This document shows positions 3,813 to 37,865 of a DNA stretch of 64,000 nt, piece by piece. This DNA is from Mnemiopsis leidyi (taxonomy: Eukaryota). The position numbers and the translations under genes were made by a program. The notes beneath the pieces are model-generated. The model made no database searches. It was not told where the DNA came from and was given only the letters and a program-made list of their open reading frames with translations. How positions within the stretch are numbered: the stretch's first letter is position 1; each line of letters starts with the position of its first letter. The stretch covers positions 19,009,034 through 19,073,033 of the forward strand of contig CM108484.1 in the NCBI GenBank assembly GCA_048537945.1. Reading direction: 5' to 3'.

Positions 3813-4524
3813 GTATGTGATTTGTTGTTTTATCTTTGATCTACTGTTCAGGGGAAAGGTAAGGCTCTGGCCATGACCCTCTGATAACATGTTTAATTTT
3901 CATGCTTCAGTAATTTCTTTACCAGCTGTTGGTGAAAATGTCATGGTGGTTGGTCCCTGTTTGAGACTGATGACATTCCGACTAAATTTAAACTCAATAT
4001 TTGACGTTTCTGGTGGATTTCCCCGTTATAACCTGATAAGAAACCGGATTGTTGTCTGATTTTAAAACTGATGTGGTGTTTCTATAAATAGAACTAGACG
4101 TTTATTGTTGCATAACTTACTTTTAAACATGAGACCTCAATCTAGCTCGATTTTAAAGAGCAGTTGCATTCATATAAAATAACTTTAAGTTTATCTACAA
4201 ATGTGGTCAAATTCTACCCGTATGCCTACTTGCCATTCCATTTAATATTTGCGTCACTCGTCAGGTCCGACCTCTGCTGAATCAAAGATTTCTTAAATGC
4301 CACTTTGTACTTGCCTTTCTAACCTAAAAAACTGCGGCTTTAAACGAAAATTTAGTTCGTCATATGCTCACGACACTGTTTTAGTTAACAGTAAACAGTT
4401 AGCATATCACTGTTAACAGTGCATAGATAACAGTTAACATTTAACAGCGAAGATATTTGTAAATAGTCAACAGTATATAGTTTAAATGTAACAGTTTACA
4501 GTTAACAGTCGATCCCTCACGCAG

Positions 4525-4681
4525 GTACACAGAGGTAGCTTCAGAGGGGACAACGTGGCTGTGAAGATATTCGCGTCACATGACGAGAAGAGCTGGTCAC
4601 GTGAGATGGACATCTACAGGACTGCTCTCATGAGAAACGAGAATATCCTCGGTTTTATCGCTGCCGACAACAAGGACAGAG
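4525..4681 (+). CDS. type I receptor exon 7 (kinase N-lobe)
   Basis: Acceptor cacgcag| at 4523-4524. Translates [52 protein letters not shown], matching the vertebrate [50 protein letters not shown]. Donor AGAG|GTAATG at 4682 (phase 1). Confidence 0.9.
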
Positions 4682-4682
4682 G

Positions 4683-4752
4683 TAATGTTTATAGTACTTT
4701 TATAGTACTTTTATAGTATTTTTGTAGTACTTTTGTAGTACTTTTATTATTT
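4683..4752 (+). repeat. 11-13-bp unit x5 (GTACTTTTATA) starting at the GT of the receptor exon 7 donor
   Basis: G|GTAATGTTTATA GTACTTTTATA GTACTTTTATA GTATTTTTGTA GTACTTTTGTA GTACTTTTATTA. Every unit begins with a donor-like GTA. Confidence 0.8.
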
Positions 4753-5682
4753 TAGTTATCTTTTGCTTTATTGAAAGAAAACACTTTACGCTAATCGCCA
4801 TATCAAAGTGGGCGCGTCTTACCCAAATCAGGCAGCATGCTATCTTTCTTGGTGTATTCGAATTACATTTCACTGTCATTATATGTGTACCAAATGTATG
4901 CTGCCTAAGGTTGACTGACAAAAGTTGACTATGTTTATATGTTATGCTGTATCAATTTGCTAGACCTGTAAACTGTACCAGAAATTGTAATATGATATTC
5001 CCTAACAAAAATGACCCTTGAATAAGTAATATGATAATATGGGTACATACAACTACTCAATGCTCAGTTCCATATTTGTTAGTAACAAAATTCGTGTAGT
5101 ATTTTACTCAGTACACACGTGGCAAGTATTATTGTTTACTATTGAGGACGTTGTAAGAACTCCTTTACTGAGCCGCATGACGTCTTGTTAGTGATCTCGA
5201 TATATTTTGTTTTATTCAGGAAATACCATAGAGTCTGAGTCCATGAATTCCATTTGTCAAATATTAGACAAATAACTGACTGTATTGCGAACAAAATTCA
5301 GTAACCCCTCAAAATACATTGAACGAGATTTGGTTGAATGCGGTGTTGTGATTGGCTGCCAACAAATCACGTGCTATCATAACGTGTTCACACAGTCACG
5401 TGTTCTTATGGGAACCGGGTAAACTCGAGTTCAGTTCGTGTCTGATGTATTGAATGGCTATTGTTTGAAAATAGAGTTAGTTTTCAGTAATGACATTAGT
5501 AATGCTACGGCACGAGAATTAGAGTCAAGTCAGAGAAGTTCTCACACTACCCTGAATTAGGACGTTCTGATGAAACTACACAGGCTGACACCTTTAAACT
5601 ACACCTTACACCTTTAACCACTCAACGTGTATAAGTTTATACTCTTCAGATATAGCCAACCTAGGAGTATATTTCCACTCTT

Positions 5683-6003
5683 AACAGGTAAAGTGTCTAA
5701 ACCCAGATAATCCCAGGTAAAGTGTCTAAACCTAGATAATCCCAGAAAAGTGTCTAAACCCAGATAATCCCAGGTAAAGTATCTAAACCCCGCTATTCTC
5801 AGCTAAAGTATCTAAACCCAGATAATCCCAGGTAAAGTATCTAAACCCCGCTGTCCCAGGTAAAGTGTCTAAACCCCGCTATCCCCAGGTAAAGTATCTA
5901 AACGCAGATAATCCCAGGTAAATTGTCTAAACCCAGATAATCCCAGCTAAAGTATCTACACCCCGATATCCCCAGGTAAAGTATCTAAACCCCGCTATCC
6001 CAG
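5683..6003 (+). repeat. 30-bp tandem array, about 10 units (CCCAGATAATCCCAGGTAAAGTGTCTAAAC), ending exactly at the receptor exon 8 acceptor
   Basis: Each unit contains TCCCAG|GTAAAGT. The last unit, ...CGCTATCCCAG|GTAACTGGACCGAAC, is the real acceptor plus the exon start at 6003/6004. Confidence 0.9.
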
Positions 6004-6207
6004 GTAACTGGACCGAACTCTGGCTGATAACGGAGTACCACGAGCTCGGCTCTCTCTACGACTTTCTCTCTCAAAACACGCTAAACAACTACGACATGTT
6101 GATATTCGCGCTGTCCATCGCTAACGGTCTGACATTCCTGCACAGCGAGATCAGGGGAACAAGCGGAACTTTGAACGCTAACGGAAACAACTACCACTGT
6201 ACTTCAG
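6004..6207 (+). CDS. type I receptor exon 8 (L45 loop and kinase hinge, with an unusual C-terminal extension)
   Basis: Acceptor ctatcccag| at 6002-6003. Translates GNWTELWLITEYHELGSLYDFLSQNTLNNYDMLIFALSIANGLTFLHSEIRGTSGTLNANGNNYHCTS. The L45 loop [14 protein letters not shown] matches the ALK4/5/7 (Smad2/3-type) ADNKDNGTWTQLWL. Donor TTCAG|GTGTGTG at 6208 (phase 1) is the only GT giving an open join to exon 9. This implies a 14-aa insertion (TLNANGNNYHCTSG) relative to the vertebrate [12 protein letters not shown]. Confidence 0.7.
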
Positions 6208-8051
6208 GTGTGTGTGTTTACTTTCTAGATAACACAGGATTAGGTGTAAAGTGTCAACATGTGTATTTGAAGAGAAAAGTTGAAGAGAAAATTTGGATTT
6301 GTGATGGGAAATTTCCGCGAGTTCCTGATTATTGCTACACAAGTTTGTCGTGTTGTGGCTTTACAATTTAAAATTTTTAGCTCAGCCCTCAAAAATGACC
6401 TACCTTATCCAAGTTACTTGTTATTTCTCAATATAAACTAATTTATATAATTGTAACATACCCGTACAAAGTTGTAAAAGAGTAACAAGTTCAGTTTCAC
6501 ATGTGCGCATTCTTCGTGTACATTGAACATTGCTACAAGTTACAATTCAGTAAATTGTACACCATAATATACTATCTAGCTACCTACAAGTTACAATCCA
6601 GTAAATTGTACACCATATTATCTAGCTACCTACCCAAGACACAAACACTCCTACCGCCTCTCTGAATATATCAATTTAAATGTGTATTTGTCTGTTAGGA
6701 TCGCTTTGTAGTACCGCATTGCACTTGCTTCGCTCGATAGATACGGAGTCAGTATGGGAACTCTTCCAGAGTATTCTTTTATTAATTGGATAATTGGTCC
6801 AGGGATCGTACCGGTATTCCATGGATTTACAATGCACCGCACCATACCACTTTACTATTCCTCTAAACGTGTAAACGTCAGGTTTATCATCAAGATTGGA
6901 GATATATATAGTGAATACATGTTTAGCGCTTACTAGAGGAAAGATGTCGTATATTTGTTAAGGCCGTGTGATAGCTATCTACTATTGTGAATAATAAGAC
7001 AAACAATTTCCATAGCTAGGGCCTGGGATACACGAATACGTGTCTAAGTTACGTTACACATTACTGAGAATCTCAAATTTTATTGTGACCAAATATACGG
7101 ATCTAACGTCACATTTCAGTGATTTAAGTTAACCTGACTTCATGAACTCTAATCACATGATATTGATAAACCCAATTATCCGGTATCCCATAACTTTAAC
7201 GTATCTCCGTTGACAGGATTGACGCTAGTTTGTGGGGCCAAAATTCTCTTTTTCTCTTTTTCTCTACGTACCCCATAACACACTACGGATCTACCCCCAG
7301 TCACTGACTCTCGTGCCCAATTAAACAGTAAAAGTATTATGTTGATATTGAATTTAGTTTGCAGGTTGAAGATAATATCTAGTTCTCCTATAACCGCCTA
7401 CAGTTGATATTGAATGGGATCCTCCTAACTCCTCTCTAATCCGCGTCGCTACAATTAATTCCCAAACAGTATTGTCCCGTCTCACAGCTCAATGAGTCTG
7501 ACGCTCCTGCCCCATCTTTATAACTTCCATGTGATTAGTGACACAGTCAATGTCTCAAAGTAACGATGCGGGACAAGGACAATGCTGCGTTTAGCCGTCA
7601 GTTTGTGTTCGGGACGTGTCTAATTGTGGGGCTCACTGTTACAAGTTTCTAATTAGTGAGAGTTTGTGTCACGGTTATTAGTGGTGGTTAGCAACTGTAG
7701 ATGTTTCCATTGTGAAGGGGAGAGCAACATTGAGATTTGGGAGGAGAGCGACAGTGTCGAGATAGTCAGAACTGTACTGTAGCTGCTATTCATCTAAAGG
7801 ACTGAGTCATGTGTAGACATGTTATTGGTAGAGGAATGGTGGTTGAATTGTCGATATACAGACTTGTCAGATGCCATCCTGGCTAGAATTACACATCTGC
7901 CACTCTAACTCGACTATATCGGCCGGATCCGGCCGTAATTCTCTCTCAAATTTATAATACTCAGTCCTCCCCGCTTGTAATGATCTCTACTTAGTCCGGC
8001 CTACCCCGATTAGCCCAGTAATCAGTCCCGCCAATGCCCGGTCACCCTCTA

Positions 8052-8135
8052 GTCACGTGCATTCAGCTGACCAATCAGCGCTGCTCGAGTTGTGTCACGT
8101 GCTCTTTGATAGCCAATCAGTGCTCGTCACGCCAG
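8052..8135. promoter_or_regulatory. promoter-like composite module: 2 E-boxes (CACGTG) plus 2 CCAAT boxes (GACCAATCAG, AGCCAATCAG)
   Basis: GTCACGTGCATTCAGCTGACCAATCAGCGCTGCTCGAGTTGTGTCACGTGCTCTTTGATAGCCAATCAGTGCTCGTCACGCC lies in receptor intron 8, about 120 bp downstream of the perfect 16-bp palindrome CGGCCGGATCCGGCCG at 7920-7935. Similar E-box plus CCAATCA modules occur at 5348-5405, 15724-15790 and 15901-15940. Confidence 0.3.
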
Positions 8136-9045
8136 GTCACGCCATCATTACTGACCTATTAGATTATTGCTTTTAATTCATGAGGCTTTCAAAGCATTTT
8201 CTCTAGCCTAATTAGTCTGGAAATCTGTAGTCTGTACAAAGGGATGTGCTGGCATTTCGGTCTGGGATCCCTGTATGGGGGAAGATGTGAAGGAGGAGAA
8301 GGGGAAGAAGAAGAAGAAGAAAGGAAAGGGGAGCAGATCAAATAGCAGATGAAGAGTGGTTAGGGGAAGGGAGAAGTAGAAGGAAGGGGTGAAGGTTGTA
8401 TGTTTACAGCCTAGTTTCTATGGAGAACACAGCTACAGGGTGCGGGTTGGTCAGCAGGAGCGATAGCAGACTAGCTGAGTAGTACACTAGTGATCCTAGC
8501 TTGTTAGAACTCATAGCTTCAGACAGTTAGAGAAGTTTATATTCGCTTTGTCATTCGACCATTCAGAATAAGTATATGCATTCTGAAGCATGCATTATAT
8601 TAACTTCTTAGAGTGCACATTCTTAAAATGCCAACATTTCAAGACTCGAGATTCTATAAATTCTAAAATTTTTATCTCGAAACCTATCATGCGAGAGTGG
8701 CTTGGTTTTAACGTTACTCTGGAAGAGTTAATCCTGCTGGGTGAAGTAGCCAATGATCATGTGGGGAGACACTGAACAGTACTTAATTTCAAGGCAGGTG
8801 TGGTGTCAGACAGTTAACGTCCAGATTATTAACATAAACAGTACTTAATTAACATAATTCTGTCCACCCAGCTCCATCTTACTATGGGTTATTGTTATCG
8901 GTAATTCCGCTATCGGAATATTGGCTAGACCGCCAACTCCGGCACACCTGGACATATTATAGTCTACAGTTCCATAGTACTAGTACTATAATATTTATAG
9001 TAGTCTAACCGTACCAGTCTACGCCTAGAAGTCAGATAAAGTAAA

Positions 9046-9932
9046 GAACATGTTACAGAGACCATGTTACAGGGACCAAGTTACAGAGACCACGTTACAG
9101 AGACCATGTTACAGAGACCATGTTACAGAGAACATGTTACTGATACCATGTTACATAGACCATGTTGTAGAGACCATGTTACAGAGACCATGTTACAGAG
9201 AACATGTTACAGAGACCATGTTACAGAGACCATGTTACAGAGACCATGTTACAGAGACTAGTTACAGAGGCCATGTTACAGAGACCATGTTACAGAGACC
9301 ATGTTACAGAGACCACGTTACAGAGACCATGCTACAGGGACCATGTTACAGAGACCATGTTACAGGGACCATGTTACAGAGACCATGTTACAGAGACCAT
9401 GTTACAGAGACCATGTGTTACAGAGACCATGTTACAGAGACCATGTTACAGAGACCATGTTACAGAGACCATGTTACAGAGACCATGTTGTAGAGACCAT
9501 GTTGTAGAGACCATGTTACAGAGACCATGTTACAGAGACCATGTTACAGAGACCATGTTACTGAGACCATGTTACAGAGACCACGTTACAGAGACCATGT
9601 TACAGAGACCATGTTACAGAGACCAAGTTACAGAGACCATGTTACAGAGACCATGTTACAGAGACCATGTTACAGAGACCATGTTACAGAGACCATGTTA
9701 CAGAGACCATGTTACAGAGACCATGTTACAGAGACCATGTTACAGAAACCATGTTACGGAGACCATGTTACAGAGACCATGTTACAGAGACCATGTTACA
9801 GAGACCATGTTACAGAGATCATGTTACAGAGACCATGTTACAGGGACCATGTTGTAGAGACCATGTTAAAGAGACCATGTTACAGAGACCATGTTACAGA
9901 GATCAAGTTACAGAGACCATGTTACAGGGACC
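9046..9932. repeat. 14-bp minisatellite (GACCATGTTACAGA), about 63 units, in receptor intron 8
   Basis: Direct periodicity. Every unit carries an acceptor-like TGTTACAG motif. The ORFs listed here by the track are repeat artefacts. Confidence 0.95.
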
Positions 9933-10975
9933 AATAGACTACATTTTATTGCATTTCTAATCGTCACGTGTTTTGCATCATGAATATTGAATATGTACAG
10001 CTTGTTGTTACAAACTGTTTAGCGTGTCCTTGTTTAAAGTGTAAAGTACAATGCCATGTGGATGTATAATGTATAATGTACTGTAACTTATATAAAGTCA
10101 TTACACTACACGCCCCCTCCTTGTGTTACAGTAGATCTAGCTCAACATTAGGCCCCCAATGACTAGGGAGCTAAAAGAGCTTAAAGAGCCTAAGTAGACA
10201 TGAAGAATGGGGAAATGTGGCTCGCTAGACTGTAGTTTTGTAATTATCTAGAAGAAACTTTTGCGGCGTCGTAACATGGGTTTCTTGGTGGTGCAGAAAA
10301 AAGTAACTCAAGAGACATTAGTATCAGTCGTAGTATTGGTTACTTTGCAGTTAAGAGTTTGCATTGATATTGATTTACAGGATAATTTAAGACAAAGTAG
10401 TGGAAGCATTGAATTAAAAGAACCATGGTTACCATGGTAACTATGGTAGCGATAGTTACCATTCCAGCTTACAATAAGTAACTAAGCGAGACTTGTTCTG
10501 GCTGAAGAACTGTTACAACTTACAGTCTAATACAGTCTAATTAGGATTTCGCGAACGTTTGTCATAAGTAACACTATCTCTCGTAGTTTCGAAGTTACTA
10601 ACGACAAAATACTGTCTAAAGCAACCGTGACGACTATTGAGTTTCAGATTATTCAACATTAGCTTCCCTCATTATCAACTTACAGGGCTACCCGCTCTTT
10701 CTCAGATGCTTTATTTACATGAGGGTTGTAAATTAACCGCTGTATGCCTATCCGATTTGAATGAAAGAATATTGACCAAGGAAATTTTGACAATAGATAT
10801 TATTGTGGCAGTGTGCTTTAATATGTTACGTATTTAATGCGCTATACGTTCAATTTGGTTATTGTGTACATTGGTCACAGCAGCTAAACCTTTATTCTTT
10901 GTAAGCACACATCCCAATGAAAACTAATCACTTATTTCCTTTATATCAGTTCCCTTTCTAACACATCTCTTGCAG

Positions 10976-11135
10976 GATACAAACCAGCGATAGCGCACCG
11001 GGACGTGAAGAGTAAGAACATTCTAGTGAAGAGTAACATGGAGTGTTGTATCAACGACCTGGGTCTGGCAGTCCGACACGACAGTAAAAACGACGAGGTG
11101 GAGCGACCCCCGGACCACAGAGTCGGCACCAAGAG
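10976..11135 (+). CDS. type I receptor exon 9 (catalytic loop and activation segment)
   Basis: Acceptor tctcttgcag| at 10974-10975. Translates (G)[52 protein letters not shown](R). HRDxKSKN and DLGLAVRH are diagnostic of TGF-beta-family receptor kinases. Donor AAGAG|GTGGGG at 11136 (phase 2). Confidence 0.9.
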
Positions 11136-12907
11136 GTGGGGTTTTCTTTTACACCGTCACATGAGTCACTGTTATGTTTACACAGAGTCGGCACCAAGAG
11201 GTGGGGTTTTCTACACGAGTTTTTGTTTCTTTTACACCGTCACATGAGTCACTGTTTTGTTGACACAGAGTCGGCACCAAGAGGTGGGGTTTTCTACTCG
11301 AGTTTTTGTTTCTTTTACACCGTCACATGAGTCACTGTTATGTTTACACAGAGTCGGCACCAAGAGGTGGGGTTTTCTACACGAGTTTTTGTTACTTTTA
11401 CACCGTCACATGAGTCACTGTTATGTTTACACAGAGTCGGCACCAAGAGGTGGGGTTTTGTACAGGAGTTTTTGTTTCTTTTACACCGTCACATGAGTCA
11501 CTGTTATGTTTACACAGAGTCGGCACCAAGAGGTGGGGTTTTCTACACGAGTTTTTGTTTCTTTTACACCGTCACATGAGTCACTGTTTTGTACACAGAG
11601 TCGGCACCAAGAGGTGGGGTTTTCTACACGAGTTTTTGTTTCTTTTACACCGTCACATGAGTCACTGTTATGTTTACACAGAGTCGGCACCAAGAGGTGG
11701 GGTTTTCTACACGAGTTTTTGTTACTTTTACACCGTCACATGAGTCACTGTTATGTTTACACAGAGTCGGCACCAAGAGGTGGGGTTTTCTACAGGAGTT
11801 TTTGTTTCTTTTACACCGTCACATGAGTCACTGTTATGTTTACACAGAGTCGGCACCAAGAGGTGGGGTTTTGTACAGGAGTTTTTGTCTCTTTTACACC
11901 GTCACATGAGTCACTGTTATGTTTACACAGAGTCAGCACCAAGAGGTGGGGTTTTGTACAGGAGTTTTTGTCTCTTTTACACCGTCACATGAGTCACTGT
12001 TATGTTTACACAGAGTCGGCACCAAGAGGTGGGGTTTTGTACAGGAGTTTTTGTTTCTTTTACACCGTCACATGAGTCACTGTTATGTTTACACAGAGTC
12101 GGCAACAAGAGGTGGGGTTTTGTACAGGAGTTTTTGTTTCTTTTACACCGTCACATGAGTCACAGTTATGTTTACACAGAGTCGGCACCAAGAGGTGGGG
12201 TTTTCTACACGAGTTTTTGTTTCTTTTACACCGTCACATGAGTCACTGTTATGTTTACACAGAGTCGGCACCAAGAGGTGGGGTTTACTTTTACACCGTC
12301 ACATGAGTCACTGTTATGTTTACACAGAGTCGGCACCAAGAGGTGGGGTTTTCTACAGGAGTTTTTGTTACTTTTACACCGTCACATGAGTCACTGTTTT
12401 GTTTACACAGAGTCGGCACCAAGAGGTGGGGTTTTCTACACGAGTTTTTGTTTCTTTTACACCGTCACATGAGTCACTGTTATGTTTACACAGAGTCGGC
12501 ACCAAGAGGTGGGGTTTTCTACACGAGTTTTTGTTTCTTTTACACCGTCACATGAGTCACTGTTATGTTTACACAGAGTCGGCACCAAGAGGTGGGGTTT
12601 TCTACACGAGTTTTTGTTTCTTTTACACCGTCACATGAGTCACTGTTATGTTTACACAGAGTCGGCACCAAGAGGTGGGGTTTTCTACACGAGTTTTTGT
12701 TTCTTTTACACTGTCACATGAGTCACTGTTATGTTTACACAGAGTCAGCACCAAGAGGTGGGGTTTTCTACACGAGTTTTTGTTTCTTTCACACCGTCAC
12801 ATGAGTCACTGTTATGTTTACACAGAGTCGGCACCAAGTGGTGGGGTTTTCTACACGAGTTTTTGTTTCTTTTACACCGTCACATGAGTCACTGTTATGT
12901 TTACACA
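11117..12907 (+). repeat. 83-bp tandem array, about 21 units; each unit contains the last 20 nt of receptor exon 9 plus its 5' splice site
   Basis: Unit CACAGAGTCGGCACCAAGAG|GTGGGGTTTTCTACACGAGTTTTTGTTTCTTTTACACCGTCACATGAGTCACTGTTATGTTTA. The first unit is the genuine exon/intron junction at 11135/11136. Confidence 0.95.
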
Positions 12908-14851: not shown

Positions 14852-14853
14852 AG

Positions 14854-27280: not shown

Positions 27281-27830
27281 CTGGGTAAGTTGGAAACTTG
27301 GTTATTGTGGGCAGCCGACATATCTAACTCTTTACAGCTTTACACAGTTTATACATTTATACAATTTATACATTTATACATTCTGCAATCTTGGCAGTGT
27401 GATCTACACCAGCTACACAGAAAGAAAATAATCTGATTGGGAGTAACAAAATTTCATTTATACAGTATACACTCCACACACTATATCTACATTCTACACA
27501 TTAAGTCTCAGCTCCTTGGGCAACGGAATGATTGGAATTTTCATTAGTAGCTATGGACGCTACATTGTTGTGTGTGATATCATGTTTGCATTCTTCCGAC
27601 AAGGTAAACTTTGAATGTAACGCTTTTTGAGTTGAAATATGAGTTAGATTAACTATGGATAGATATAAATATAGATTAAATAGGATTAATAATTTACGTT
27701 AGTTGAACTGTGGGAAAGGAAAGATGGTTAATTTAATGGCTGTTCACTGTTCAGTATTCAGAAGTAAAAACCTGCAATAAGAAAATATCTAAACCATAGT
27801 TTAAATAACCCTAACAGACAAAAAAACAAC

Positions 27831-27980
27831 CTTTCCAGTTTTGATGTCCCTGACGTAGATACCCTCGTTCTCATCGAGAGGCATGGCCTTCCTCCTGTCA
27901 ATAATCTCCATCTCTACAGTTGGGATGAACTCGCACGCTCCTCTTACCATCCACAAGTTTCCGGGCTGTCTCTCTACTCC
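27831..27980 (-). CDS. MVP: MVP exon 7: [50 protein letters not shown]
   Basis: Acceptor cgatttcag| and donor AAG|GTTGTT. Matches the vertebrate [42 protein letters not shown]. Confidence 0.85.
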
Positions 27981-28862
27981 CTGAAATCGAAAACTTTGTC
28001 AGAACGTAATTCGTTTTTTTGTGAGACAGTGATCTTCTTGTGTATCTGACTTACAATGAGATAGTGCACCATACCATTGCGGTGGTATTTCTCGGCAAGT
28101 TCCTTCTCAATTCCAAATTTAAAATTGAGTTGTTGTTAAATACGTAAGTTCGAACGACTTTCTTATTAAAAGTAGTTTCTAAGGCGTTCAAAGGAAACTA
28201 GGATAAACAACTTTTATCGCAATAACTCAATAAGGAAATGGGATGTAGCCGAGGTCTGACCAGGATTGTTTTATGGAAGCCAAATTATGAATGTAAATCT
28301 ACGTCACATAACATTGATACATAGCGCTGACTGATTAGGCTTCCCATTCTCAAGGGACTTGTACAGTGTATACTGTACATACAACTGCAAGCCCCAAGAT
28401 AAAGTTTACATAATAATACATATCATTATACTATCTTTTCGAAGATTTTGTTAAAGATAAAGGTACCAGGTATATTGTGTAAAGGTACCAGGTATATTGT
28501 GTAAACTGTTTCCGACCCAGAAGATGCATCAAATATAATTCGTACACAGTAGGGTTGAGAAGTTATCACAACACCCAACAACAATAATTTAATGATTATT
28601 TATTACTAGTATATCATATTTTAGGTCTTAGCGGGGTTGGCTACTAACAGTCAATTTGACTGACTTGCCAATCCCTCACAGCAATTTTGAAGCTCCACAT
28701 GTTATTTTTATGATTATTTATGTATTGCTGTGTAAATTTTAATCAAAATTCAAAAAATTTCTAGCTCTTAATCTGACTCGATAACATATTATTCTGCACT
28801 GTTATCTCAAGAGACGAAGTGTATGGGAACACTTTGTAGGTATTACACAGACCACAGGTGAC

Positions 28863-29693
28863 AGGATGTTGAATACCTTACAAGACATTTTTATAACGTA
28901 CGAAATGCGACGGTTTTCCCGAAATTTCGCCATATTTTCGGACCGCCAAAATTTCGGTCGTCGTAATAGAATCCGTCGCATTATTTTTAGTTTATTCCAA
29001 TAATTGTGGCGTCATCGATTCATTTTGTTCTTAAAAAGTTAGTGATATGATGGTGGGACAAATAAACAAAATATTCCATGATGAATTGAATGTCAAGTAA
29101 CAAGTTTTAAATTAACAATAAATTACATTCCTGTGCTAACATAAACGTTTTATAAGAGAATAAGTCAAGATAAACAATTTAATGCCAAACTCAATAAGTC
29201 ATGCGATGCAGATATACCGTCATTTATCAGTGGACTAAAATTTAGATTTTGAAATACTAAAATCAGCCAGTTATATACTAACCAGTTATCATCTTATTAC
29301 TCAAGTCAAAGGTTACTATCCATCGGGAAACTAACGATGTGTCTCTTCAACATGATCGGTATATGCGTGAGCCGTAAACGTGAAGCGGATAAAGGACGGA
29401 AGAGTATGCTGAGTCCCACAGTTGGTAACCGTGGGACATATTCCGTTAGAAGTTAGTAAATATTGTCACTATTTCACTATGTGCCACGGTGGCGAAATTA
29501 ATGGAGTTGTTGATTTTACCGATATTTAGAAAATTTTGAATTTACTTTGTGTCAGAAAACAAAATGATAAAAATAGCCTTATTTTCTGTGACGTCCGAAA
29601 TGTGACGGTTTTCATTCAATTTCGCCATATTTTCGGACCGCCAAAATTTCGGTCGTCGCAAATTGGTCCGCCACAAAAATGTCTTGTAAGGTA
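28863..29693. mobile_element. putative non-autonomous DNA element in an MVP intron (17-bp terminal inverted repeat plus 70-bp subterminal direct repeats)
   Basis: ACCTTACAAGACATTTTT at 28863 pairs with AAAAATGTCTTGTAAGGT at about 29676. Inside each end sits a copy of TTCGCCATATTTTCGGACCGCCAAAATTTCGGTCGTCG. Confidence 0.45.
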
Positions 29694-30306
29694 TTAAAGG
29701 TAAGAACTTTGTAGATTTAAGTTGTTGTGATGGCAACCAGAACCCCACAATGTAATGAGAGAGTTACTAATGACATTTCAGTACATCGGCCGATATACTC
29801 TACCTTCTAGAACATTCCATAGTTCCTGAAACAATGCTCTTACACAGACATTACACGCAGTTCATGAATTCTGTTCATCAGCAGGAGTGTGAGGTGTGTA
29901 ACACAGATCAGTTTGTTGTCAACTGTGTGGGTTGATTGTCGTTGTCATGGCAACGATCATTAGCTAAATGGAGGCCTGCATGAAAAGCAGTCTGAATTCA
30001 TGTACTCACTGCAATGTAACGGAGAAATCAGCAAAATAAGAGAATCTGCAGACATTACGTAAAGCCAATAAGATATTTCATGTTTTAACCTAGCCAGGTT
30101 GTTTGTGAATACAACAGATGTGCCTGTCCTTAAGTTGCTTTTACTTATTTTTCATAATTCAAAGATAAGTCCTCATCTGACGCAATTGTAACACATTTGT
30201 TAATTACTTGAGCTGCTGTTCAATTAGCCATAAACAGCTGAATCACAAAAGTAGGTCTTTATAATAAGTATATTCATTCAGATCACTACATATCAGGGAA
30301 ACTCAC

Positions 30307-30573
30307 ATTATCAGTGAAAGACAAGACCGCCTTGACGATGATAGCCTCGTCCTCCCCTAGAATGTGAACATCCTGAATTCCAGCCTCCAAACTCTCTCCG
30401 GGCTGGAGGAAGAAACTCTTCTCTCCCTTGATGAGCTTCCTCTGTCCCAGCTTGTTCTTGCCGTCGTCTCCCATGGGGTCCAGGATCACACAGTACTGTC
30501 GGTTTGTCAGGGTCGAGATGTTCACAACTTGGATCACGTTCTCGTGTACGTCCGGGATAAACGCTTCTGAGTC
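30307..30573 (-). CDS. MVP: MVP exon 6: [89 protein letters not shown]
   Basis: Acceptor cacctacag| and donor AAT|GTGAGT. Matches the vertebrate [76 protein letters not shown]. Confidence 0.85.
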
Positions 30574-30746
30574 CTGTAGGTGGATGGATTTATGAAGGAG
30601 CAGCCATGTTACGGCATTCTAGTAAAGTTTTTGAGAGATTTGAGTAAGCAAGATTTTAAAAGATATCTTATCACAGTAGAGAAAATTGAGATAAGAAGAA
30701 ATGACTAAAGACAATATCTACATTCTAGAACTGCTGCAGTCCAAAC

Positions 30747-30959
30747 CTTGATAGTGATAAGCCACTGTTCTCCGCTTTTCCTGTTCACTCCAAACCTATC
30801 TTTGTAGCTCTGGAGCGCCTCGAGGTGCAGGGCGATGTTCTCTGTCAGGATGTACGCGGAGATGAACCCGACAACTTGCTCGTACGCGCCGGGGAGGTAC
30901 GCGCCGGTCTTGTTGACCAGCCATTCCTCGCCACAAACACGGTCTTTGCCTTGCTGGTC
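30747..30959 (-). CDS. MVP: MVP exon 5: DQQGKDRVCGEEWLVNKTGAYLPGAYEQVVGFISAYILTENIALHLEALQSYKDRFGVNRKSGEQWLITIK
   Basis: Acceptor cctgcag| and donor AAG|GTTTGG. Matches the vertebrate [71 protein letters not shown]. Confidence 0.85.
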
Positions 30960-31087
30960 CTGCAGGTAATATGTACAGGAATGTGGAGTGTGAGTGTTGG
31001 GATTAGTGTCAGACACCGCGGTCATTATAAAAGAATTTACGTACACGCTGTGCAGCGATAGTATTTGGTTTACAAGAGAGTACATAC

Positions 31088-31191
31088 CTTGCAGGCTTTA
31101 AGAGCTCGGAGTCTGAGGGCCTGGTTTGGACTGATAATGCTGGCTCTGATTGTCTCTACAACTTCCACAAACTTGTGAGGGAGGTAGGTTC
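31088..31191 (-). CDS. MVP: MVP exon 4: (G)[34 protein letters not shown]
   Basis: Acceptor tatcttcag| whose AG is at plus 31192-31193. Donor AAG|GTATGT. Matches the vertebrate [34 protein letters not shown]. The 6.6 kb minisatellite begins 10 bp upstream of this acceptor. Confidence 0.8.
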
Positions 31192-31200
31192 CTGAAGATA

Positions 31201-34200
31201 GGTAACAGTTAGCTCTACCTCACTGCTCTAGCTCTATTCTGTTGTCATGTACTAACTACTTAGTTACCTAGCTCTACCTCACTGCTCTAGCTCTATTCTG
31301 TTGTCATGTACTGACTACTAAGTTACCTAGCTCTACCTCACTGCTCTAGCTCTATTCTGTTGTCATGTACTGACTACTTAGTTAGCTAGCTCTACCTCAC
31401 TGCTCTAGCTCTATTCTGTTATCATGTACTGACTTCTTAGTTACCTAGCTCTACCTCACTGCTCTAGCTCTATTCTGTTGTCATGTACTGGCTGCTTAGT
31501 TAGCTAGCTCTACCTCACTGCTCTAGCTCTATTCTGTTATCATGTACTGACTACTTAGGTAGCTAGCTCTACCTCACTGCTCTAGCTCTATTCTGTTGTC
31601 ATGTACTGACTACTTAGTTACCTAGCTCTACCTCACTGCTCTAGCTCTATTCTGTTGTCATGTACTGACTACTTAGTTACCTAGCTCTACCTCACTGCTC
31701 TAGCTCTATTTTGTTATCATGTACTGACTACTTAGTTAGCTAGCTCTACCTCACTGCTCTAGCTCTATTCTGTTATCATGTACTGACTACTTAGTTAGCT
31801 AGCTCTACCTCACTGCTCTAGCTCTATTCTGTTATCATGTACTGACTACTTAGTTAGCTAGCTCTACCTCACTGCTCTAGCTCTATTCTGTTGTCATGTA
31901 CTGACTACTTAGTTACCTAGCTCTACCTCACTGCTCTAGCTCTATTCTGTTATCATGTACTGACTACTTAGTTAGCTAGCTCTACCTCACTTCTCTAGCT
32001 CTATTCTGTTGTCATGTACTGACTACTTAGTTAGCTAGCTCTACCTCACTGCTCTAGCTCTATTCTGTTGTCATGTACTGACTACTTAGTTACCTAGCTC
32101 TACCTCACTGCTCTAGCTCTATTCTATTATCATGTACTAACTACTTAGTTAGCTAGCTCTACCTCACTGCTCTAGCTCTATTCTGTTGTCATGTACTGAC
32201 TACTTAGTTACCTAGCTCTACCTCACTGCTCTAGCTCTATTCTGTTATCATGTAGTGACTACTTAGTTACCTAGCTCTACCTCACTGCTCTAGCTCTATT
32301 CTGTTATCATGTACTGACTACTTAGTTACCTAGCTCTACCTCACTGCTCTAGCTCTATTCTGTTATCATGTAGTGACTACTTAGTTACCTAGCTCTACCT
32401 CACTGCTCTAGCTCTATTCTGTTATCATGTACTGACTACTTAGTTACCTAGCTCTACCTCACTGCTCTAGCTCTATTCTGTTATCATGTACTGATTACTT
32501 AGTTAGCTAGCTCTACCTCACTGCTCTAGCTCTATTCTGTTATCATGTACTGACTACTTAGTTACCTAGCTCTACCTCACTGCTCTAGCTCTATTCTGTT
32601 GTCATGTACTGACTACTTAGTTAGCTAGCTCTACCTCACTGCTCTAGCTCTATTCTGTTATCATGTACTGACTACTTAGTTAGCTAGCTCTACCTCACTG
32701 CTCTAGCTCTATTCTGTTATCATGTACTGACTACTTAGTTAAATAGCTCTACCTCACTGCTCTAGCTCTATTCTTTTATCATGTACTGACTACTTAGTTA
32801 GCTAGCTCTACCTCACTGCTCTAGCTCTATTATGTTATCATGTACTGACTACTTAGTTACCTAGCTCTACCTCACTGCTCTAGCTCTATTCTATTATCAT
32901 GTACAGACTACTTAGTTAGCTAGCTCTACCTCACTGCTCTAGCTCTATTCTGTTGTCATGTACTGACTACTTAGTTAGCTAGCTCTACCTCACTGCTCTA
33001 GCTCTATTCTGTTGTCATGTACTGACTACTTCGTTACCTAGCTCTACCTCACTGCTCTAGCTCTATTCTGTTGTCATGTACTGACTACTTAGTTAGCTAG
33101 CTCTACCTCACTGCTCTAGCTCTATTCTGTTGTCATGTACTGACTACTTAGTTAGCTAGCTCTACCTCACTGCTCTAGCTCTATTCTGTTGTCATGTACT
33201 GACTACTTAGTTAGCTAGCTCTACCTCACTGCTCTAGCTCTATTCTGTTGTCATGTACTGACTACTTAGTTAGCTAGCTCTACCTCACTGCTCTAGCTCT
33301 ATTCTGTTGTCATGTACTGACTACTAAGTTAGCTAGCTCTACCTCACTGCTCTAGCTCTATTCTGTTGTCATGTACTGACTACTTAGTTACCTAGCTCTA
33401 CCTCACTGCTCTAGCTCTATTCTGTTATCATGTACTGACTACTTAGTTAGCTAGCTCTACCTCACTGCTCTAGCTCTATTCTGTTGTCATGTACTAACTA
33501 CTTAGTTAGCTAGCTCTACCTCACTGCTCTAGCTCTATTCTGTTGTCATGTACTGACTACTAAGTTAGCTAGCTCTACCTCACTGCTCTAGCTCTATTCT
33601 GTTGTCATGTACTGACTACTTAGTTACCTAGCTCTACCTCACTGCTCTAGCTCTATTCTGTTGTCATGTACTAACTACTTAGTTACCTAGCTCTACCTCA
33701 CTGCTCTAGCTCTATTCTGTTGTCATGTACTGACTACTTAGTTACCTAGCTCTACCTCACTGCTCTAGCTCTATTCTGTTGTCATGTACTAACTACTTAG
33801 TTACCTAGCTCTACCTCACTGCTCTAGCTCTATTCTGTTGTCATGTACTGACTACTTAGTTAGCTAGCTCTACCTCACTGCTCTAGCTCTATTCTGTTGT
33901 CATGTACTGACTACTTAGTTAGCTAGCTCTACCTCACTGCTCTAGCTCTATTCTGTTGTCATGTACTGACTACTTAGTTAGCTAGCTCTACCTCACTGCT
34001 CTAGCTCTATTCTGTTGTCATGTACTGACTACTAAGTTAGCTAGCTCTACCTCACTGCTCTAGCTCTATTCTGTTGTCATGTACTGACTACTTAGTTACC
34101 TAGCTCTACCTCACTGCTCTAGCTCTATTCTGTTATCATGTACTGACTACTTAGTTACCTAGCTCTACCTCACTGCTCTAGCTCTATTCTGTTGTCATGT

Positions 34201-37200
34201 ACTAACTACTTAGTTAGCTAGCTCTACCTCACTGCTCTAGCTCTATTCTGTTGTCATGTACTGACTACTAAGTTAGCTAGCTCTACCTCACTGCTCTAGC
34301 TCTATTCTGTTGTCATGTACTGACTAATTAGTTAGCTAGCTCTACCTCACTGCTCTAGCTCTATTCTGTTGTCATGTACTGACTACTTCGTTACCTAGCT
34401 CTACCTCACTGCTCTAGCTCTATTCTGTTGTCATGTACTGACTACTTAGTTAGCTAGCTCTACCTCACTGCTCTAGCTCTATTCTGTTGTCATGTACTGA
34501 CTACTTAGTTACCTAGCTCTACCTCACTGCTCTAGCTCTATTCTATTATCATGTACTAACTACTTAGTTAGCTAGCTCTACCTCACTGCTCTAGCTCTAT
34601 TCTGTTGTCATGTACTGACTACTTAGTTACCTAGCTCTACCTCACTGCTCTAGCTCTATTCTGTTATCATGTAGTGACTACTTAGTTACCTAGCTCTACC
34701 TCACTGCTCTAGCTCTATTCTGTTATCATGTACTGACTACTTAGTTACCTAGCTCTACCTCACTGCTCTAGCTCTATTCTGTTATCATGTAGTGACTACT
34801 TAGTTACCTAGCTCTACCTCACTGCTCTAGCTCTATTCTGTTATCATGTACTGACTACTTAGTTACCTAGCTCTACCTCACTGCTCTAGCTCTATTCTGT
34901 TATCATGTACTGATTACTTAGTTAGCTAGCTCTACCTCACTGCTCTAGCTCTATTCTGTTATCATGTACTGACTACTTAGTTACCTAGCTCTACCTCACT
35001 GCTCTAGCTCTATTCTGTTGTCATGTACTGACTACTTAGTTAGCTAGCTCTACCTCACTGCTCTAGCTCTATTCTGTTATCATGTACTGACTACTTAGTT
35101 AAATAGCTCTACCTCACTGCTCTAGCTCTATTCTTTTATCATGTACTGACTACTTAGTTAGCTAGCTCTACCTCACTGCTCTAGCTCTATTATGTTATCA
35201 TGTACTGACTACTTAGTTAGCTAGCTCTACCTCACTGCTCTAGCTCTATTCTATTATCATGTACAGACTACTTAGTTAGCTAGCTCTACCTCACTGCTCT
35301 AGCTCTATTCTGTTGTCATGTACTGACTACTTAGTTAGCTAGCTCTACCTCACTGCTCTAGCTCTATTCTGTTGTCATGTACTGACTACTTCGTTACCTA
35401 GCTCTACCTCACTGCTCTAGCTCTATTCTGTTGTCATGTACTGACTACTTAGTTAGCTAGCTCTACCTCACTGCTCTAGCTCTATTCTGTTGTCATGTAC
35501 TGACTACTTAGTTAGCTAGCTCTACCTCACTGCTCTAGCTCTATTCTGTTGTCATGTACTGACTACTTAGTTAGCTAGCTCTACCTCACTGCTCTAGCTC
35601 TATTCTGTTGTCATGTACTGACTACTTAGTTAGCTAGCTCTACCTCACTGCTCTAGCTCTATTCTGTTGTCATGTACTGACTACTTAGTTACCTAGCTCT
35701 ACCTCACTGCTCTAGCTCTATTCTGTTATCATGTACTGACTACTTAGTTACCTAGCTCTACCTCACTGCTCTAGCTCTATTCTGTTGTCATGTACTAACT
35801 ACTTAGTTAGCTAGCTCTACCTCACTGCTCTAGCTCTATTCTGTTGTCATGTACTGACTACTAAGTTAGCTAGCTCTACCTCACTGCTCTAGCTCTATTC
35901 TGTTGTCATGTACTGACTACTTAGTTAGCTAGCTCTACCTCACTGCTCTAGCTCTATTCTGTTGTCATGTACTGACTACTTCGTTACCTAGCTCTACCTC
36001 ACTGCTCTAGCTCTATTCTGTTGTCATGTACTGACTACTTAGTTACCTAGCTCTACCTCACTGCTCTAGCTCTATTCTGTTGTCATGTACTGACTACTTA
36101 GTTACCTAGCTCTACCTCACTGCTCTAGCTCTATTCTGTTGTCATGTACTAACTACTTAGTTAGCTAGCTCTACCTCACTGCTCTAGCTCTATTCTATTA
36201 TCATGTACTAACTACTTAGTAACCTAGCTCTACCTCACTGCTCTAGCTCTATTCTGTTATCATGTACTGACTACTTAGTTACCTAGCTCTACCTCACTGC
36301 TCTAGCTCTATTCTGTTGTCATGTACTAACTACTTCGTTAGCTAGCTCTACCTCACTGCTCTAGCTCTATTCTGTTGTCATGTACTGACTACTTAGCTAG
36401 CTCTACCTCACTGCTCTAGCTTTATTCTGTTGTCATGTACTGACTACTTAGTTAGCTAGCTCTACCTCACTGCTCTAGCTCTATTCTGTTATCATGTACT
36501 AACTACTTAGTTAACTAGCTCTACCTCACTGCTCTAGCTCTATTCTGTTATCATGTACTGACTACTTAGCTAGCTCTACCTCACTGCTCTAGCTCTATTC
36601 TGTTGTCATGTACTAACTACTTGGTTAGTTAGCTCTACCTCACTGCTCTAGCTCTATTCTGTTGTCATGTACTGACTACTTAGTTACCTAGCTCTACCTC
36701 ACTGCTCTAGCTTTATTCTGTTGTCATGTACTGACTACTTAGTTACCTAGCTCTACCTCACTGCTCTAGCTCTATTCTGTTGTCATGTACTGACTACTTA
36801 GTTACCTAGCTCTACCTCACTGCTCTAGCTCTATTCTGTTATCATGTACTGACTACTTAGTTAGCTAGCTCTACCTCACTGCTCTAGCTCTATTCTGTTG
36901 TCATGTACTGACTACTTAGTTACCTAGCTCTACCTCACTGCTCTAGCTCTATTCTGTTATCATGTACTAACTACTTAGTTAGTTAGCTCTACCTCACTGC
37001 TCTAGCTCTATTCTGTTATCATGTACTAACTACTTAGTTAGCTAGCTCTACCTCACTGCTCTAGCTCTATTCTGTTTCATGTACTGACTACTTTGTTACC
37101 TAGCACTACCTCACTGCTCTAGCTCTATTCTGTTGTCATGTACTGACTTCTTAGTTACCTAGCTCTACCTCACTGCTCTAGCTCTATTCTGTTGTCATGT

Positions 37201-37865
37201 ACTGACTACTTAGTTACCTAGCTCTACCTCACTGCTCTAGCTCTATTCTGTTATCATGTACTAACTACTTAGTTAGTTAGCTCTACCTCACTGCTCTAGC
37301 TCTATTCTGTTATCATGTACTAACTACTTAGTTAGCCAGCTCTACCTCACTGCTCTAGCTCTATTCTGTTTCATGTACTGACTACTTTGTTACCTAGCTC
37401 TACCTCACTGCTCTAGCTCTATTCTGTTATCATGTACTGACTACTTAGTTAGCTAGCTCTACCTCACTGCTCTAGCTCTATTCTGTTGTCATGTACTGAC
37501 TACTTAGTTAGCTAGCTCTACCTCACTGCTCTAGCTCTATTCTGTTGTCATGTACTGACTACTTAGTTACCTAGCTCTACCTCACTGCTCTAGTTCTATT
37601 CTGTTGTCATGTACTGACTACTTCGTTACCTAGCTCTACCTCACTGCTCTAGCTATATTCTATTATCATGTACTAACTACTTCGTTAGCTAGCTCTACCT
37701 CACTGCTCTAGCTCTATTCTGTTGTCATGTACTGACTACTTAGTTAGCTAGCTCTACCTCACTGCTCTAGCTCTATTCTGTTGTCATGTACTGACTACTT
37801 AGTTAGCTAGCTCTACCTCACTGCTCTAGCTCTATTCTGTTGTCATGTACTGACTACTTAGTTAC
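31201..37865. repeat. 60-bp minisatellite, about 110 units (AGTTACCTAGCTCTACCTCACTGCTCTAGCTCTATTCTGTTGTCATGTACTGACTACTT) inside an MVP intron
   Basis: Near-identical units with variants such as G/A in TGTTG/ATCATG and TTACC/TTAGC. The array starts 10 bp from the acceptor of MVP exon 4. Confidence 0.95.

Follow-up and report, generated by a model that had tools for sequence, protein, structure and literature searches.

The window analysed, a 64-kb stretch of Mnemiopsis leidyi DNA, contains two neighbouring genes, one for a TGF-beta type I receptor (forward strand) and one for the major vault protein (MVP; reverse strand). Their coding exons are as follows.

1511..19138, forward strand: TGF-beta type I receptor gene, 12 coding exons
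1511-1562, 1828-2023, 2193-2338, 3130-3249, 3415-3555, 3718-3812, forward strand: receptor exons 1-6
4525-4681, 6004-6207, 10976-11135, 14854-14978, 16834-16970, 19007-19138, forward strand: receptor exons 7-12
23619..40384, reverse strand: MVP gene, 14 coding exons
40384-40247, 39910-39785, 38771-38567, 31191-31088, 30959-30747, 30573-30307, 27980-27831, reverse strand: MVP exons 1-7
27280-27042, 26683-26344, 26222-26169, 25990-25833, 24490-24247, 24067-23879, 23738-23619, reverse strand: MVP exons 8-14

The hand-spliced receptor matches the M. leidyi protein KAL5258003.1 with 100% identity over 100% coverage, each intron has a single GT-AG solution that reproduces this protein, and the RACE-derived cDNA protein AEP16397.1 has junctions identical to those spliced here. 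MVP exons have GT-AG borders throughout, and the product aligns with rat MVP (2qzv) over query positions 8-846 (E=0), with gap-free joins between exons 3 and 4 and between exons 8 and 9. The start of MVP exon 11 was set at 25990 on the basis of transcripts P0368 and P0371, replacing a start at 26008; this site is not adjacent to any array. The original prediction had allowed that revised exon boundaries could move the junctions away from the edges of nearby tandem arrays. When the boundaries were checked no array-adjacent junction shifted, and revised boundaries that would separate junctions and arrays are excluded by the exact protein matches of the receptor and its unique GT-AG solutions.

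Tandem arrays at splice junctions

Arrays were delimited with TRF (strict and lenient) and by direct reading of the sequence. As predicted, eight of them lie at or beside real splice sites of the two genes, a result that holds with both the TRF calls and the validated junctions.

4383-4509 (TRF), forward strand: degenerate (A)GTTAAC / TTAACAG heptamers at the 3' end of receptor intron 6, edge 15 nt before exon 7
4682-4755 (TRF), forward strand: 11-bp array of six units, each starting GTA, flush with the start of the exon 7 donor
5685-6007 (TRF), forward strand: 29-bp x11.2 array at the exon 8 acceptor, unit CAGGTAAAGTRTCTAAACCC...
11116-12925 (TRF), forward strand: 83-bp array at the exon 9 donor, motif CACAGAGTCGGCACCAAGAG|GTGGGGTTTTCT x22
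14758-14841 (strict TRF) or 14849 (lenient TRF), forward strand: 30-bp x3.1 array at the exon 10 acceptor
16513-16832 (TRF), forward strand: 63-bp x5.1 array with 99% matches at the exon 11 acceptor
26657-26845 (TRF and direct reading), reverse strand: 62-bp x3 array at the MVP exon 9 acceptor
31207/31210-37864 (TRF), reverse strand: 59-bp x113 minisatellite of 6.65 kb with 96% matches in MVP intron 3

Three of the eight copy the junction outright (83 bp x22, 62 bp x3 and 29 bp x11). The 83-bp unit holds the final 20 nt of exon 9 together with the donor GTGGGG and ~63 nt of intron, so that CACAGAGTCGGCACCAAGAG|GTGGGG occurs 22 times; the first copy is the real exon 9 donor and the other 21 are decoys. 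The 62-bp unit copies 34-35 nt of MVP intron 8 together with the first 27 nt of exon 9, and places two decoys (TTTAG|G) upstream of the real acceptor (TTCAG|G). In the 29-bp array, the final partial unit is formed by the real CAG of the exon 8 acceptor and the four exon bases that follow it (GTAA), and the units carry the motif CAG|GTAAAGT because they descend from the real exon 8 start, CAG|GTAAC.

The other five arrays adjoin their junctions at 0-18 nt and copy no exon sequence. The TTAACAG array reaches 4520, 4 nt before exon 7, if it is extended by homology to the 28-bp unit (..TTAACATCTCAC) of a close relative. At the exon 7 donor, the repeats do start at the donor as predicted, with a unit of 11 bp rather than 13: unit 1 is the real donor, and the array reads GTAATGTTTATA, then GTACTTTTATA and variants. 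Strict TRF puts the edge of the 30-bp array 12 nt upstream of exon 10, and lenient TRF puts it 4 nt upstream. The array at exon 11 had been described as 59-bp units, the last of which supplies the acceptor AG; the unit is 63 bp, and the array terminates in TACA 1 nt before the exon, contributing only the A of the AG. Its last unit contains a branch-point-like ACTAAT. The MVP minisatellite occupies 90% of intron 3 (6.6 kb of 7.4 kb), with its 5' edge ~700 nt from the exon 3 donor and its 3' edge 15-18 nt upstream of exon 4 (31191), rather than 10 bp as first given; a proposed likeness between the TAGTCAG of its units and TATCTTCAG is weak.

In all eight arrays, one edge lies from -20 to +27 nt relative to a junction, and the acceptor side is favoured (6/8). 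The claim that edges fall exactly at junctions holds for two arrays, which are in exact register with intron ends (at +1 of the donor of exon 7 and at -1 of the acceptor of exon 11); the remaining six edges are scattered at -20, +4, +27, -4, -15 and -16. Placement was compared with a null of random positions within introns, with overlap into exons by 30 nt permitted; the test is post hoc and covers one window, flagged beforehand for its junction arrays. An edge within 20 nt of a junction was found for 7/17 arrays with a TRF score of at least 50, against 1.5 expected (P~1e-4), and for 7/11 arrays scoring at least 90. Among arrays specific to M. leidyi, six of 11 lie within 12 nt of a junction, against 0.9 expected (P~2e-5). 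Non-random placement within the window, as had been proposed, is supported.

Direct repeats of 3-7 nt are found at each array edge, including CAGGTAA (29-bp array), TACA (63-bp array), CACA.GAG (83-bp array) and GAT (62-bp array). Two causes suggested originally fare poorly. The junction arrays have no consistent sense-strand G skew and thus give no support to an R-loop cause, of which a G-rich sense strand would be the signature, and spliceosome-coupled template switching is not favoured by edges scattered from -20 to +27, while the edge microhomology is also expected from ordinary slippage. A transposon origin was also rejected, since self-BLAST of the 64-kb window revealed no dispersed copies of the junction-array units and the three junction-spanning units hold local exon sequence.

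Comparison with a close relative and use of decoy sites

In the relative, exons are 87% identical to those of M. leidyi and every intron position is retained. Its introns are 77-91% alignable, and the M. leidyi arrays fall in junction-proximal alignment gaps. Six of the eight arrays are absent at the orthologous junctions. The relative lacks the 11-bp exon 7 donor array, the 29-bp exon 8 acceptor array, the 30-bp exon 10 acceptor array and the 63-bp exon 11 acceptor array; the exon-9-end and donor motif of the 83-bp array is present in one copy, and MVP intron 8 measures 163 nt with a single-copy junction. The two remaining sites are arrayed in both species. At the exon 7 acceptor, where the M. 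leidyi array is degenerate, the relative has an orthologous 28-bp x17 array with its edge 6 nt before the exon; its MVP intron 3 is 842 nt long, with both flanks homologous and a 14-bp x4.8 array 26 nt from the exon 4 acceptor. Copy number at these shared sites is very different between the species. Other arrays differ between the relative's two contigs (53-bp x62 vs x44; 44-bp x3 vs x10), which gives indirect support to length instability.

The genome-wide habit suggested originally goes beyond the two adjacent genes covered here. The same two genes of the relative show no junction enrichment (1/15 arrays, P=0.8), and none was found in more distant MVP loci. Lineage-specific arrays lie at junctions in 6/11 cases in M. 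leidyi vs 0/9 in the relative (Fisher P=0.012). In this window the junction excess is genuine, and it is confined to the lineage of M. leidyi. The absence of six arrays from the relative agrees with the prediction of lineage-specific expansions and indicates that they are recent; as judged from the sequences of the two species compared, the junction arrays represent a recent burst specific to the M. leidyi lineage, reflecting either gain here or clean loss in the relative. For the MVP exon 9 array, a more distant locus (L003) also has no array, which points to a gain in M. leidyi.

A null model in which the ancestral introns were short (150 nt), so that any array born in them would necessarily be close to a junction, is ruled out for receptor introns 6-11, which are 1.1-4.8 kb in the relative too.

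In AEP16397.1 and five annotated isoforms only exon-contiguous sites are joined, and no use of a decoy site was found among these six isoform or cDNA proteins. For MVP, exon-contiguous splicing is based on homology and on transcripts of related species. Splice sites were scored with a small local matrix, in which the real acceptor outscored the decoys in all five acceptor arrays scored. At the exon 8 acceptor the difference is small (decoys 7.1-8.3, real 8.9), and it is larger at exon 11 (in-unit decoy CGCAG|T 6.7, real 10.7) and at MVP exon 9 (decoys 4.0-4.2, real 7.7). Decoy GTs at the exon 7 donor score at most 0.6, compared with 6.7 for the real site, and at the exon 9 donor all decoys have the score of the real donor (10.0). 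The 29-bp units (..CCCAG|GTAAAGT) combine acceptor halves of 7.1-8.3 with weakly scoring donor halves, only one of which reaches 5.0; real donors average 8.9.

Origin of the junction arrays

These observations are probably best explained if the arrays are junction-spanning and junction-abutting intronic minisatellites of the amphioxus 'mirage' type, carried as near-neutral passengers and not as functional devices. The three junction-spanning arrays are members of the mirage class, and the five abutting arrays are neighbours of that class. A short stretch at or across an exon-intron boundary would have been tandemly duplicated by slippage or unequal exchange between direct repeats of 3-7 nt, and the copy number of the array would then have expanded. 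The mRNA uses only the exon-contiguous copy, that is, the 5'-most donor or the 3'-most acceptor, as cDNA and annotated proteins show. Decoys may be silent for several reasons: most acceptor decoys are weaker sites, identical sites may be disfavoured by position as in the human F7 VNTR, and decoy use could break the reading frame (65/83- and 62-nt units), with degradation of the product.

Tolerance of this kind accounts for the existence of arrays, not for their approximately five-fold excess over deep-intronic arrays.

The excess could be a product of chance and ascertainment, if arrays are everywhere in a repeat-rich region and the window was flagged as several fell near junctions. Tandem repeats make up 34% of the window (lenient TRF), the orthologous genes of the relative are consistent with random placement, and the P values, which refer to a single window selected for its junction arrays, are uncorrected for the number of windows screened. 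However, those values remain at ~1e-4 to 2e-5 even with a null that allows 30 nt of exon overlap, three arrays copy the junction itself, and several amphioxus genes were independently noted for the same pattern, so that we regard chance as unlikely. Possible, though still doubtful, is junction-targeted mutation, in which tandem duplications in the M. leidyi lineage start preferentially no more than ~30 nt from an exon edge; candidate causes are breaks or stalled replication forks linked to nucleosome phasing over exons, pausing of RNA polymerase II at splice sites, or conflict between transcription and replication. The local excess is strong and includes the young, lineage-specific arrays. Short introns do not explain it, since those affected had already reached at least 1.1 kb in the common ancestor; longer survival of arrays beside junctions is likewise disfavoured, as the small, old, shared arrays are mostly interior and 6/8 junction arrays are new. 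Amphioxus, independently, has the same pattern. Against targeting, the evidence comes from two adjacent genes, neither the relative nor the more distant MVP loci show enrichment, and no sequence feature, G skew included, points to a process; moreover, 6/8 arrays lie within one 12-kb stretch of one gene, which makes a regional burst an alternative. An active hot zone for tandem duplication within ~30 nt of junctions in this lineage, acceptor-biased (6/8) and convergent with the amphioxus mirages, is something we would propose only tentatively, as an unlikely variant.

Selection on functional arrays, acting as repeated branch points, pyrimidine tracts, intronic splicing enhancers or silencers, or efficiency-tuning decoys, appears improbable as a general account. 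The superior scores of the real acceptors would fit it, as would the fact that, where an array reaches an acceptor, the branch point must come from the last unit. Its best case is the TTAACAG array, which adjoins the exon 7 acceptor in both species and in which TTAAC fits the branch-point consensus yUnAy; because this array has been kept, a function there as multiple branch points is conceivable. However, 6/8 arrays are absent from the relative despite the same protein and junctions, the unit sequences are mutually unrelated, copy number varies greatly both between the species and between the relative's contigs, and the amphioxus and human F7 counterparts are reported to be silent. We consider an RNA-mediated origin very improbable indeed. 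Excised intron or pre-mRNA copies would have been reverse-transcribed and recombined back, spliceosome-associated template switching included, and the two arrays in exact register with intron ends are consistent with this; but the other six edges are off the junction, which makes the boundary a region rather than an exact point, three arrays contain exon sequence, unlike an excised intron, and the microhomology at array ends fits slippage at the DNA level.

If the junction bias proves to be genome-wide in M. leidyi, two animal lineages as distant as ctenophores and cephalochordates would share an unexplained tendency to build minisatellites on splice junctions. An amphioxus curiosity would then become a tractable question of how exon edges affect DNA instability, for which assemblies and annotation are public and the introns of a close relative can be aligned. 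A hot zone, if real, would imply that DNA breakage or slippage is generally linked to exon-edge chromatin or co-transcriptional splicing, and would steadily supply raw material from which introns could slide and alternative splice sites and new exons could form. Site choice by a non-bilaterian spliceosome has two natural test beds here, the exon 9 array with its 21 perfect decoys of the donor and the exon 8 array with ~8 decoys nearly equal to the real acceptor. Junction arrays also mislead gene predictors and inflate intron length, as in MVP intron 3, most of which is one array.

Relation to known systems

The pattern was not originally recognised as a described one, but it is already known from the amphioxus mirages and from the 37-bp VNTR in intron 7 (IVS7) of human F7. 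According to the passages describing them, mirages are junction-spanning minisatellites in the amphioxus Adh3, globin, TnC and PGBD5 genes (PMC3087553, PMC3902484), including the globins BflGb6/9 (Ebner et al. 2010, PMC3087553) and PGBD5 (Pavelitz et al. 2013, PMC3902484). They are described there as duplicating splice sites with splicing undisturbed, as unstable in copy number and as having an unclear mechanism (PMC3087553, PMC3902484). By TRF, the arrays reported here are likewise head-to-tail minisatellites, with units of 7, 11, 29, 30, 59, 62, 63 and 83 bp in 3-113 copies. As in the mirages so described, units span the junction and copy the AG/GT signal with part of the exon in the 83-, 62- and 29-bp arrays, both 5' and 3' boundaries are hit, several genes per genome are affected, and only exon-contiguous sites are joined in the cDNA and annotated isoforms; unit sizes are 29-83 bp for these three, compared with 10-160 bp given for amphioxus. 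Unlike the mirages of these accounts, the present arrays belong to Ctenophora rather than Cephalochordata, and five of eight only abut the junction. An enrichment test and a sister-species comparison were carried out here; the passages on mirages mention neither. Junction minisatellites are thus a known kind, and a literature search of incomplete coverage found no report of them in Mnemiopsis or other ctenophores.

The exon 9 array also resembles the F7 VNTR, in which unit 1 lies across the donor of exon 7 (Borensztajn et al. 2006, PMC1557585) and the pseudo-donors are silent despite being identical to the real donor, with upstream-site selection shown by mutagenesis (PMC1557585). Here too, unit 1 straddles the boundary between exon and donor, every later unit has a pseudo-donor identical to the real one, and only the most upstream is used in the mRNA. 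The array differs in its 21 decoys in 83-bp units, and upstream-site choice, for which 5'-to-3' scanning would be a candidate mechanism, is inferred from cDNA and annotation.

Introns can be created or moved by tandem duplication of an AG|GT-containing segment, as in the Rogers model and internal gene duplications (cited in PMC3087553) and in a potato RdRp case (PMC4974935), as far as these papers' passages on the subject go. Each duplication in our arrays similarly contains AG|GT and hence extra potential splice sites, and the acceptors of receptor exons 7, 8, 10 and 11 and of MVP exon 8 read CAG|GT. Unlike in that model, the extra copies lie inside pre-existing introns and no new intron has formed; all intron positions are common to the relative. 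Recursive splice sites, or ratchet points, are juxtaposed 3' and 5' splice sites (AG|GTAAGT). The 29-bp units, with an acceptor directly followed by donor-like sequence, resemble these in appearance only; splicing to the acceptor of such a unit would recreate a donor and be invisible in the mRNA, as at recursive splice sites.

Gene models and splice junctions

The window is eukaryotic DNA with a GC content of ~0.40 and very abundant tandem repeats. Genes were located by tblastn with probe proteins that served for location only: the + strand holds a TGF-beta type I receptor-like gene, and the gene for major vault protein (MVP) lies on the - strand. Receptor exons were spliced by hand, starting at the GS-domain exon, and the product matches KAL5258003.1 (hypothetical protein ACHWQZ_G012826, Mnemiopsis leidyi) with 100% identity and 100% coverage. 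When this 554-aa protein was mapped onto the window, twelve coding exons were obtained, with exactly one GT-AG solution per intron. AEP16397.1 (TGF-beta type I receptor, Mnemiopsis leidyi), a member of the same 90% cluster that comes from a study isolating these receptor genes by RACE PCR, has its exon joins 6/7, 7/8, 9/10 and 10/11 precisely where the hand model puts them. The MVP model comprises fourteen GT-AG exons (848 aa), with the start of exon 11 reset from related species' transcripts; it aligns with rat MVP over residues 8-846 and is gap-free where exon 3 meets exon 4 and exon 8 meets exon 9. The original prediction numbered the exons correctly.

Many acceptors are followed by GT (a slash marks the junction): CAG/GTACAC, CAG/GTAACT, CAG/GTACAT and CAG/GTGCTC at receptor exons 7, 8, 10 and 11, and CAG/GTAAGAG at MVP exon 8 (27280). 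These are AG/GT proto-splice-site or recursive-like junctions, and duplication across any of them would yield units that are potential acceptors and donors at once. The receptor also carries, relative to human TGFBR1, an insertion of ~15 aa (TLNANGNNYHCTSGY) directly before the catalytic-loop HRD motif (window 6168-6207 and 10976-10980).

Tandem arrays and splice-site use

All eight arrays of the original prediction are present, as determined with TRF and by reading each array in register with its junction.

Arrays at junctions of the receptor gene (+ strand, 1511-19138) and the MVP gene (- strand, 23619-40384)
Receptor exon 7 acceptor: degenerate TTAACAG array, stops 4-15 nt before the exon
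Receptor exon 7 donor: 11-bp array, begins at the first base of the donor
Receptor exon 8 acceptor: 29-bp x11 array, unit starts CAG/GTAAAGT; the final, incomplete copy consists of the real CAG and the exon's GTAA
Receptor exon 9 donor: 83-bp array, last 20 nt of exon plus donor, CACAGAGTCGGCACCAAGAG/GTGGGGTTTTCT, x22; the real site is the first copy
Receptor exon 10 acceptor: 30-bp x3 array, stops 4-12 nt before the exon
Receptor exon 11 acceptor: 63-bp x5.1 array, stops one base short of the exon
MVP exon 4 acceptor: 59-bp x113 array of 6.65 kb, stops 15-18 nt before the exon
MVP exon 9 acceptor: 62-bp x3 array, unit of 34-35 nt intron plus 27 nt exon; real site TTCAG/G, decoys TTTAG/G

Three of the eight (83, 62 and 29 bp) copy the junction itself, and the other five adjoin it without exon sequence in their units. 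The arrays consist of local sequence, since each of the three units that span a junction includes sequence of the neighbouring exon. Each array closes with 3-7 nt of an incomplete unit, matching the flank (CAGGTAA, TACA, CACA.GAG, GAT). A transposon origin was rejected, as no dispersed copies were found in the window. Some details of the original prediction required adjustment: TRF and direct reading change unit sizes slightly (13 to 11, 59 to 63 and 60 to 59 bp), and the likeness of the 59-bp unit to the MVP exon 4 acceptor is weak. The arrays had also been placed exactly at junctions; all eight do lie at or near them, but their edges scatter from -20 to +27.

The splice-site copies within the units are termed decoys here. 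Annotated proteins and cDNA show that mRNAs join the exon-contiguous site only. No decoy use is seen among the annotated receptor isoforms, which differ at exon 2, at exon 3/4 and by an alternative donor past exon 10, and arrays are not involved in any of these differences.

Annotated receptor isoforms
P0361 and cDNA protein P0365: alternative acceptor 15 nt into exon 2
P0362: intron 10 retained
P0363: alternative exon 3/4 junction
P0364: alternative donor TCA/GTAATC, 26 nt beyond that of exon 10 (window 14979-15004), frameshifted

Splice sites were scored with a small local matrix, to which the two genes of M. leidyi and of a close relative contributed 47 real sites. By this matrix, the 21 decoy donors of the exon 9 array score 10.0, equal to the real donor, the decoy acceptors of exon 8 reach 7.1-8.3 where the real acceptor has 8.9, and the remaining decoys are clearly weaker than real sites. 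Decoy use would shift the frame, given unit lengths of 65/83 and 62 nt.

Arrays were also seen away from these junctions. In the interior of receptor intron 8 lies a 14-bp x63 array (window 9045-9933; unit AGACCATGTTACAG) with an acceptor-like TTACAG in each copy. Further along the window lies a large inverted duplication (45356-54077 versus 63999-56053) with arms of ~8.7 kb, 80-96% identical and centred near 55 kb. Its mirrored elements are 54-bp minisatellites (50504-53032 and 56809-59034), 21-bp arrays (46497-46612 and 62759-62886), and tracts of (CT)n and (AC)n that face (AG)n and (GT)n, respectively; this part of the window yielded no convincing ORF. GTTACAG occurs in the 54-bp units as well, and ACAG-bearing units recur among the region's arrays.

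Comparison with a close relative

The same loci in the close relative lie on two contigs of assembly ERZ25071805, which were reached through exon-level ORFs and walked in 20-kb steps. Exons share 87% nucleotide identity between the species, AG and GT are found at every intron position, and large portions of the introns align at 77-91% identity. The gene order MIF, MVP, receptor is common to both, with MVP and receptor tail to tail; the MIF-like gene lies upstream of MVP (window 41213-42961, - strand; 3226-3603 of L002, a piece of the relative's contigs). The relative retains the pre-HRD insertion of the receptor, as TLNASGNNYHCTSG.

At the receptor exon 7 donor, 8 acceptor, 9 donor, 10 acceptor and 11 acceptor and the MVP exon 9 acceptor, the relative has single-copy sequence and no array, and the M. 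leidyi arrays occupy junction-proximal gaps of the intron alignment. The absence of these six of the eight arrays bears out the predicted lineage-specific expansion. The other two junctions carry repeats in the two species alike: in the relative, a 28-bp x17 array built on the same TTAACAG motif stops 6 nt short of receptor exon 7, and a 14-bp x4.8 array lies 26 nt before MVP exon 4, with both flanks homologous to those of M. leidyi's 6.6-kb array. Two more distant MVP loci have no junction arrays. On this sequence comparison, most of the junction arrays appear to be recent.

The relative's own large arrays are interior (53 bp x62 or x44, 68 bp x10, 13 bp x103). In contrast to most of the junction arrays, several small interior arrays are kept between the species (17-mer, 20-mer, 12-mer and (AC)n). 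The 17-mer (GATGGAATTCAATTGAC), 12-mer (ACAGACAGATAA) and (AC)n arrays (window 15099-15142, 17357-17407 and 17877-18094) have the same position and unit in L007, another contig piece. The 20-bp x2.4-3.5 array of receptor intron 9 (window 13263-13332; orthologue L007 10431-10474) has a unit, TGTGGTGTGACGTCATCTCG, that holds the CRE palindrome TGACGTCA; with its tandem CREB/ATF sites, the array may represent an enhancer conserved within the intron.

The relative's two contigs also differ greatly from each other (L007 6780-10076 versus L006 16334-18666; L002 13133-14467; L005 6829-7983). The copy-number differences concern the 53-bp array (62 versus 44 copies) and a 44-bp intergenic array (3 versus 10 copies). 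One contig has an MVP intron 11 that is ~4.8 kb longer (5.5 kb versus ~0.7 kb), the extra sequence including the 13-bp x103 array, and on one contig MVP and receptor have a reverse-transcriptase ORF (RVT_1) between them. The contigs represent either haplotypes or duplicates of recent origin, and their arrays turn over very fast.

Array placement was assessed by permutation, each array being re-placed uniformly within its own intron with a generous exon overlap of up to 30 nt allowed. In the M. leidyi window, 7 of 17 arrays with a TRF score of at least 50 lie with one edge no more than 20 nt from a junction, versus 1.5 expected (P~1e-4), and this non-random placement agrees with the original prediction, although the test is post hoc on one window picked for the pattern. 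At a score of at least 90, the same post hoc test on the picked window gives 7 of 11 versus 1.0 expected. The same two genes in the relative show no junction enrichment (1/15 within 20 nt versus 1.4 expected, permutation P=0.8). Among lineage-specific arrays, 6/11 lie within 12 nt of a junction in M. leidyi (0.9 expected, P~2e-5) versus 0/9 in the relative (Fisher P=0.012). The junction pattern is not displayed by the same genes in the close relative.

Origin of the arrays and known counterparts

Short direct repeats probably gave rise to the arrays through slippage or unequal exchange, in line with the incomplete end units that match the flanks, and the arrays would persist because they are neutral for splicing. 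Spliceosome-associated template switching and R-loops had been suggested as causes. An RNA-templated process would know the exact intron ends, and the scatter of array edges is therefore evidence against it; R-loops find no support, the junction arrays having no sense-strand G skew in common. Nor can the arrays lie near junctions merely because introns were once short, since receptor introns 6-11 measure 1.1-4.8 kb in both species.

Tolerance alone predicts no excess over deep-intron positions, and three readings are therefore kept. A mutational hot zone near exon edges, specific to the lineage, is offered tentatively as one possibility. Chance together with ascertainment is a rather unlikely source of the pattern. 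Selection for function, suggested mainly by the TTAACAG array that both species retain at the exon 7 acceptor, is improbable. Overall, the interpretation in the original prediction has partial support, as it is right on the non-random pattern and on the lineage-specific expansions.

The pattern had been considered undescribed, a view that amphioxus and human examples of the same kind overturn. In the literature searched, whose coverage is incomplete, no reports from Mnemiopsis or other ctenophores were found; the phenomenon is already known outside ctenophores. Amphioxus mirages are minisatellites spanning splice junctions. They occur at 5' as well as 3' boundaries, with units of 10-160 bp and allelic copy-number differences, and leave splicing undisturbed; the mechanism behind them is called unclear (PMC3087553, PMC3902484). 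Three of the eight M. leidyi arrays fall within the definition of mirages, and the other five are junction-abutting neighbours of the class. Human F7 has a 37-bp VNTR whose first unit lies across the exon 7 donor; its pseudo-donors are identical to the real donor yet silent, since it is the most upstream donor that is selected (PMC1557585). The receptor exon 9 array has the same architecture as this F7 VNTR.
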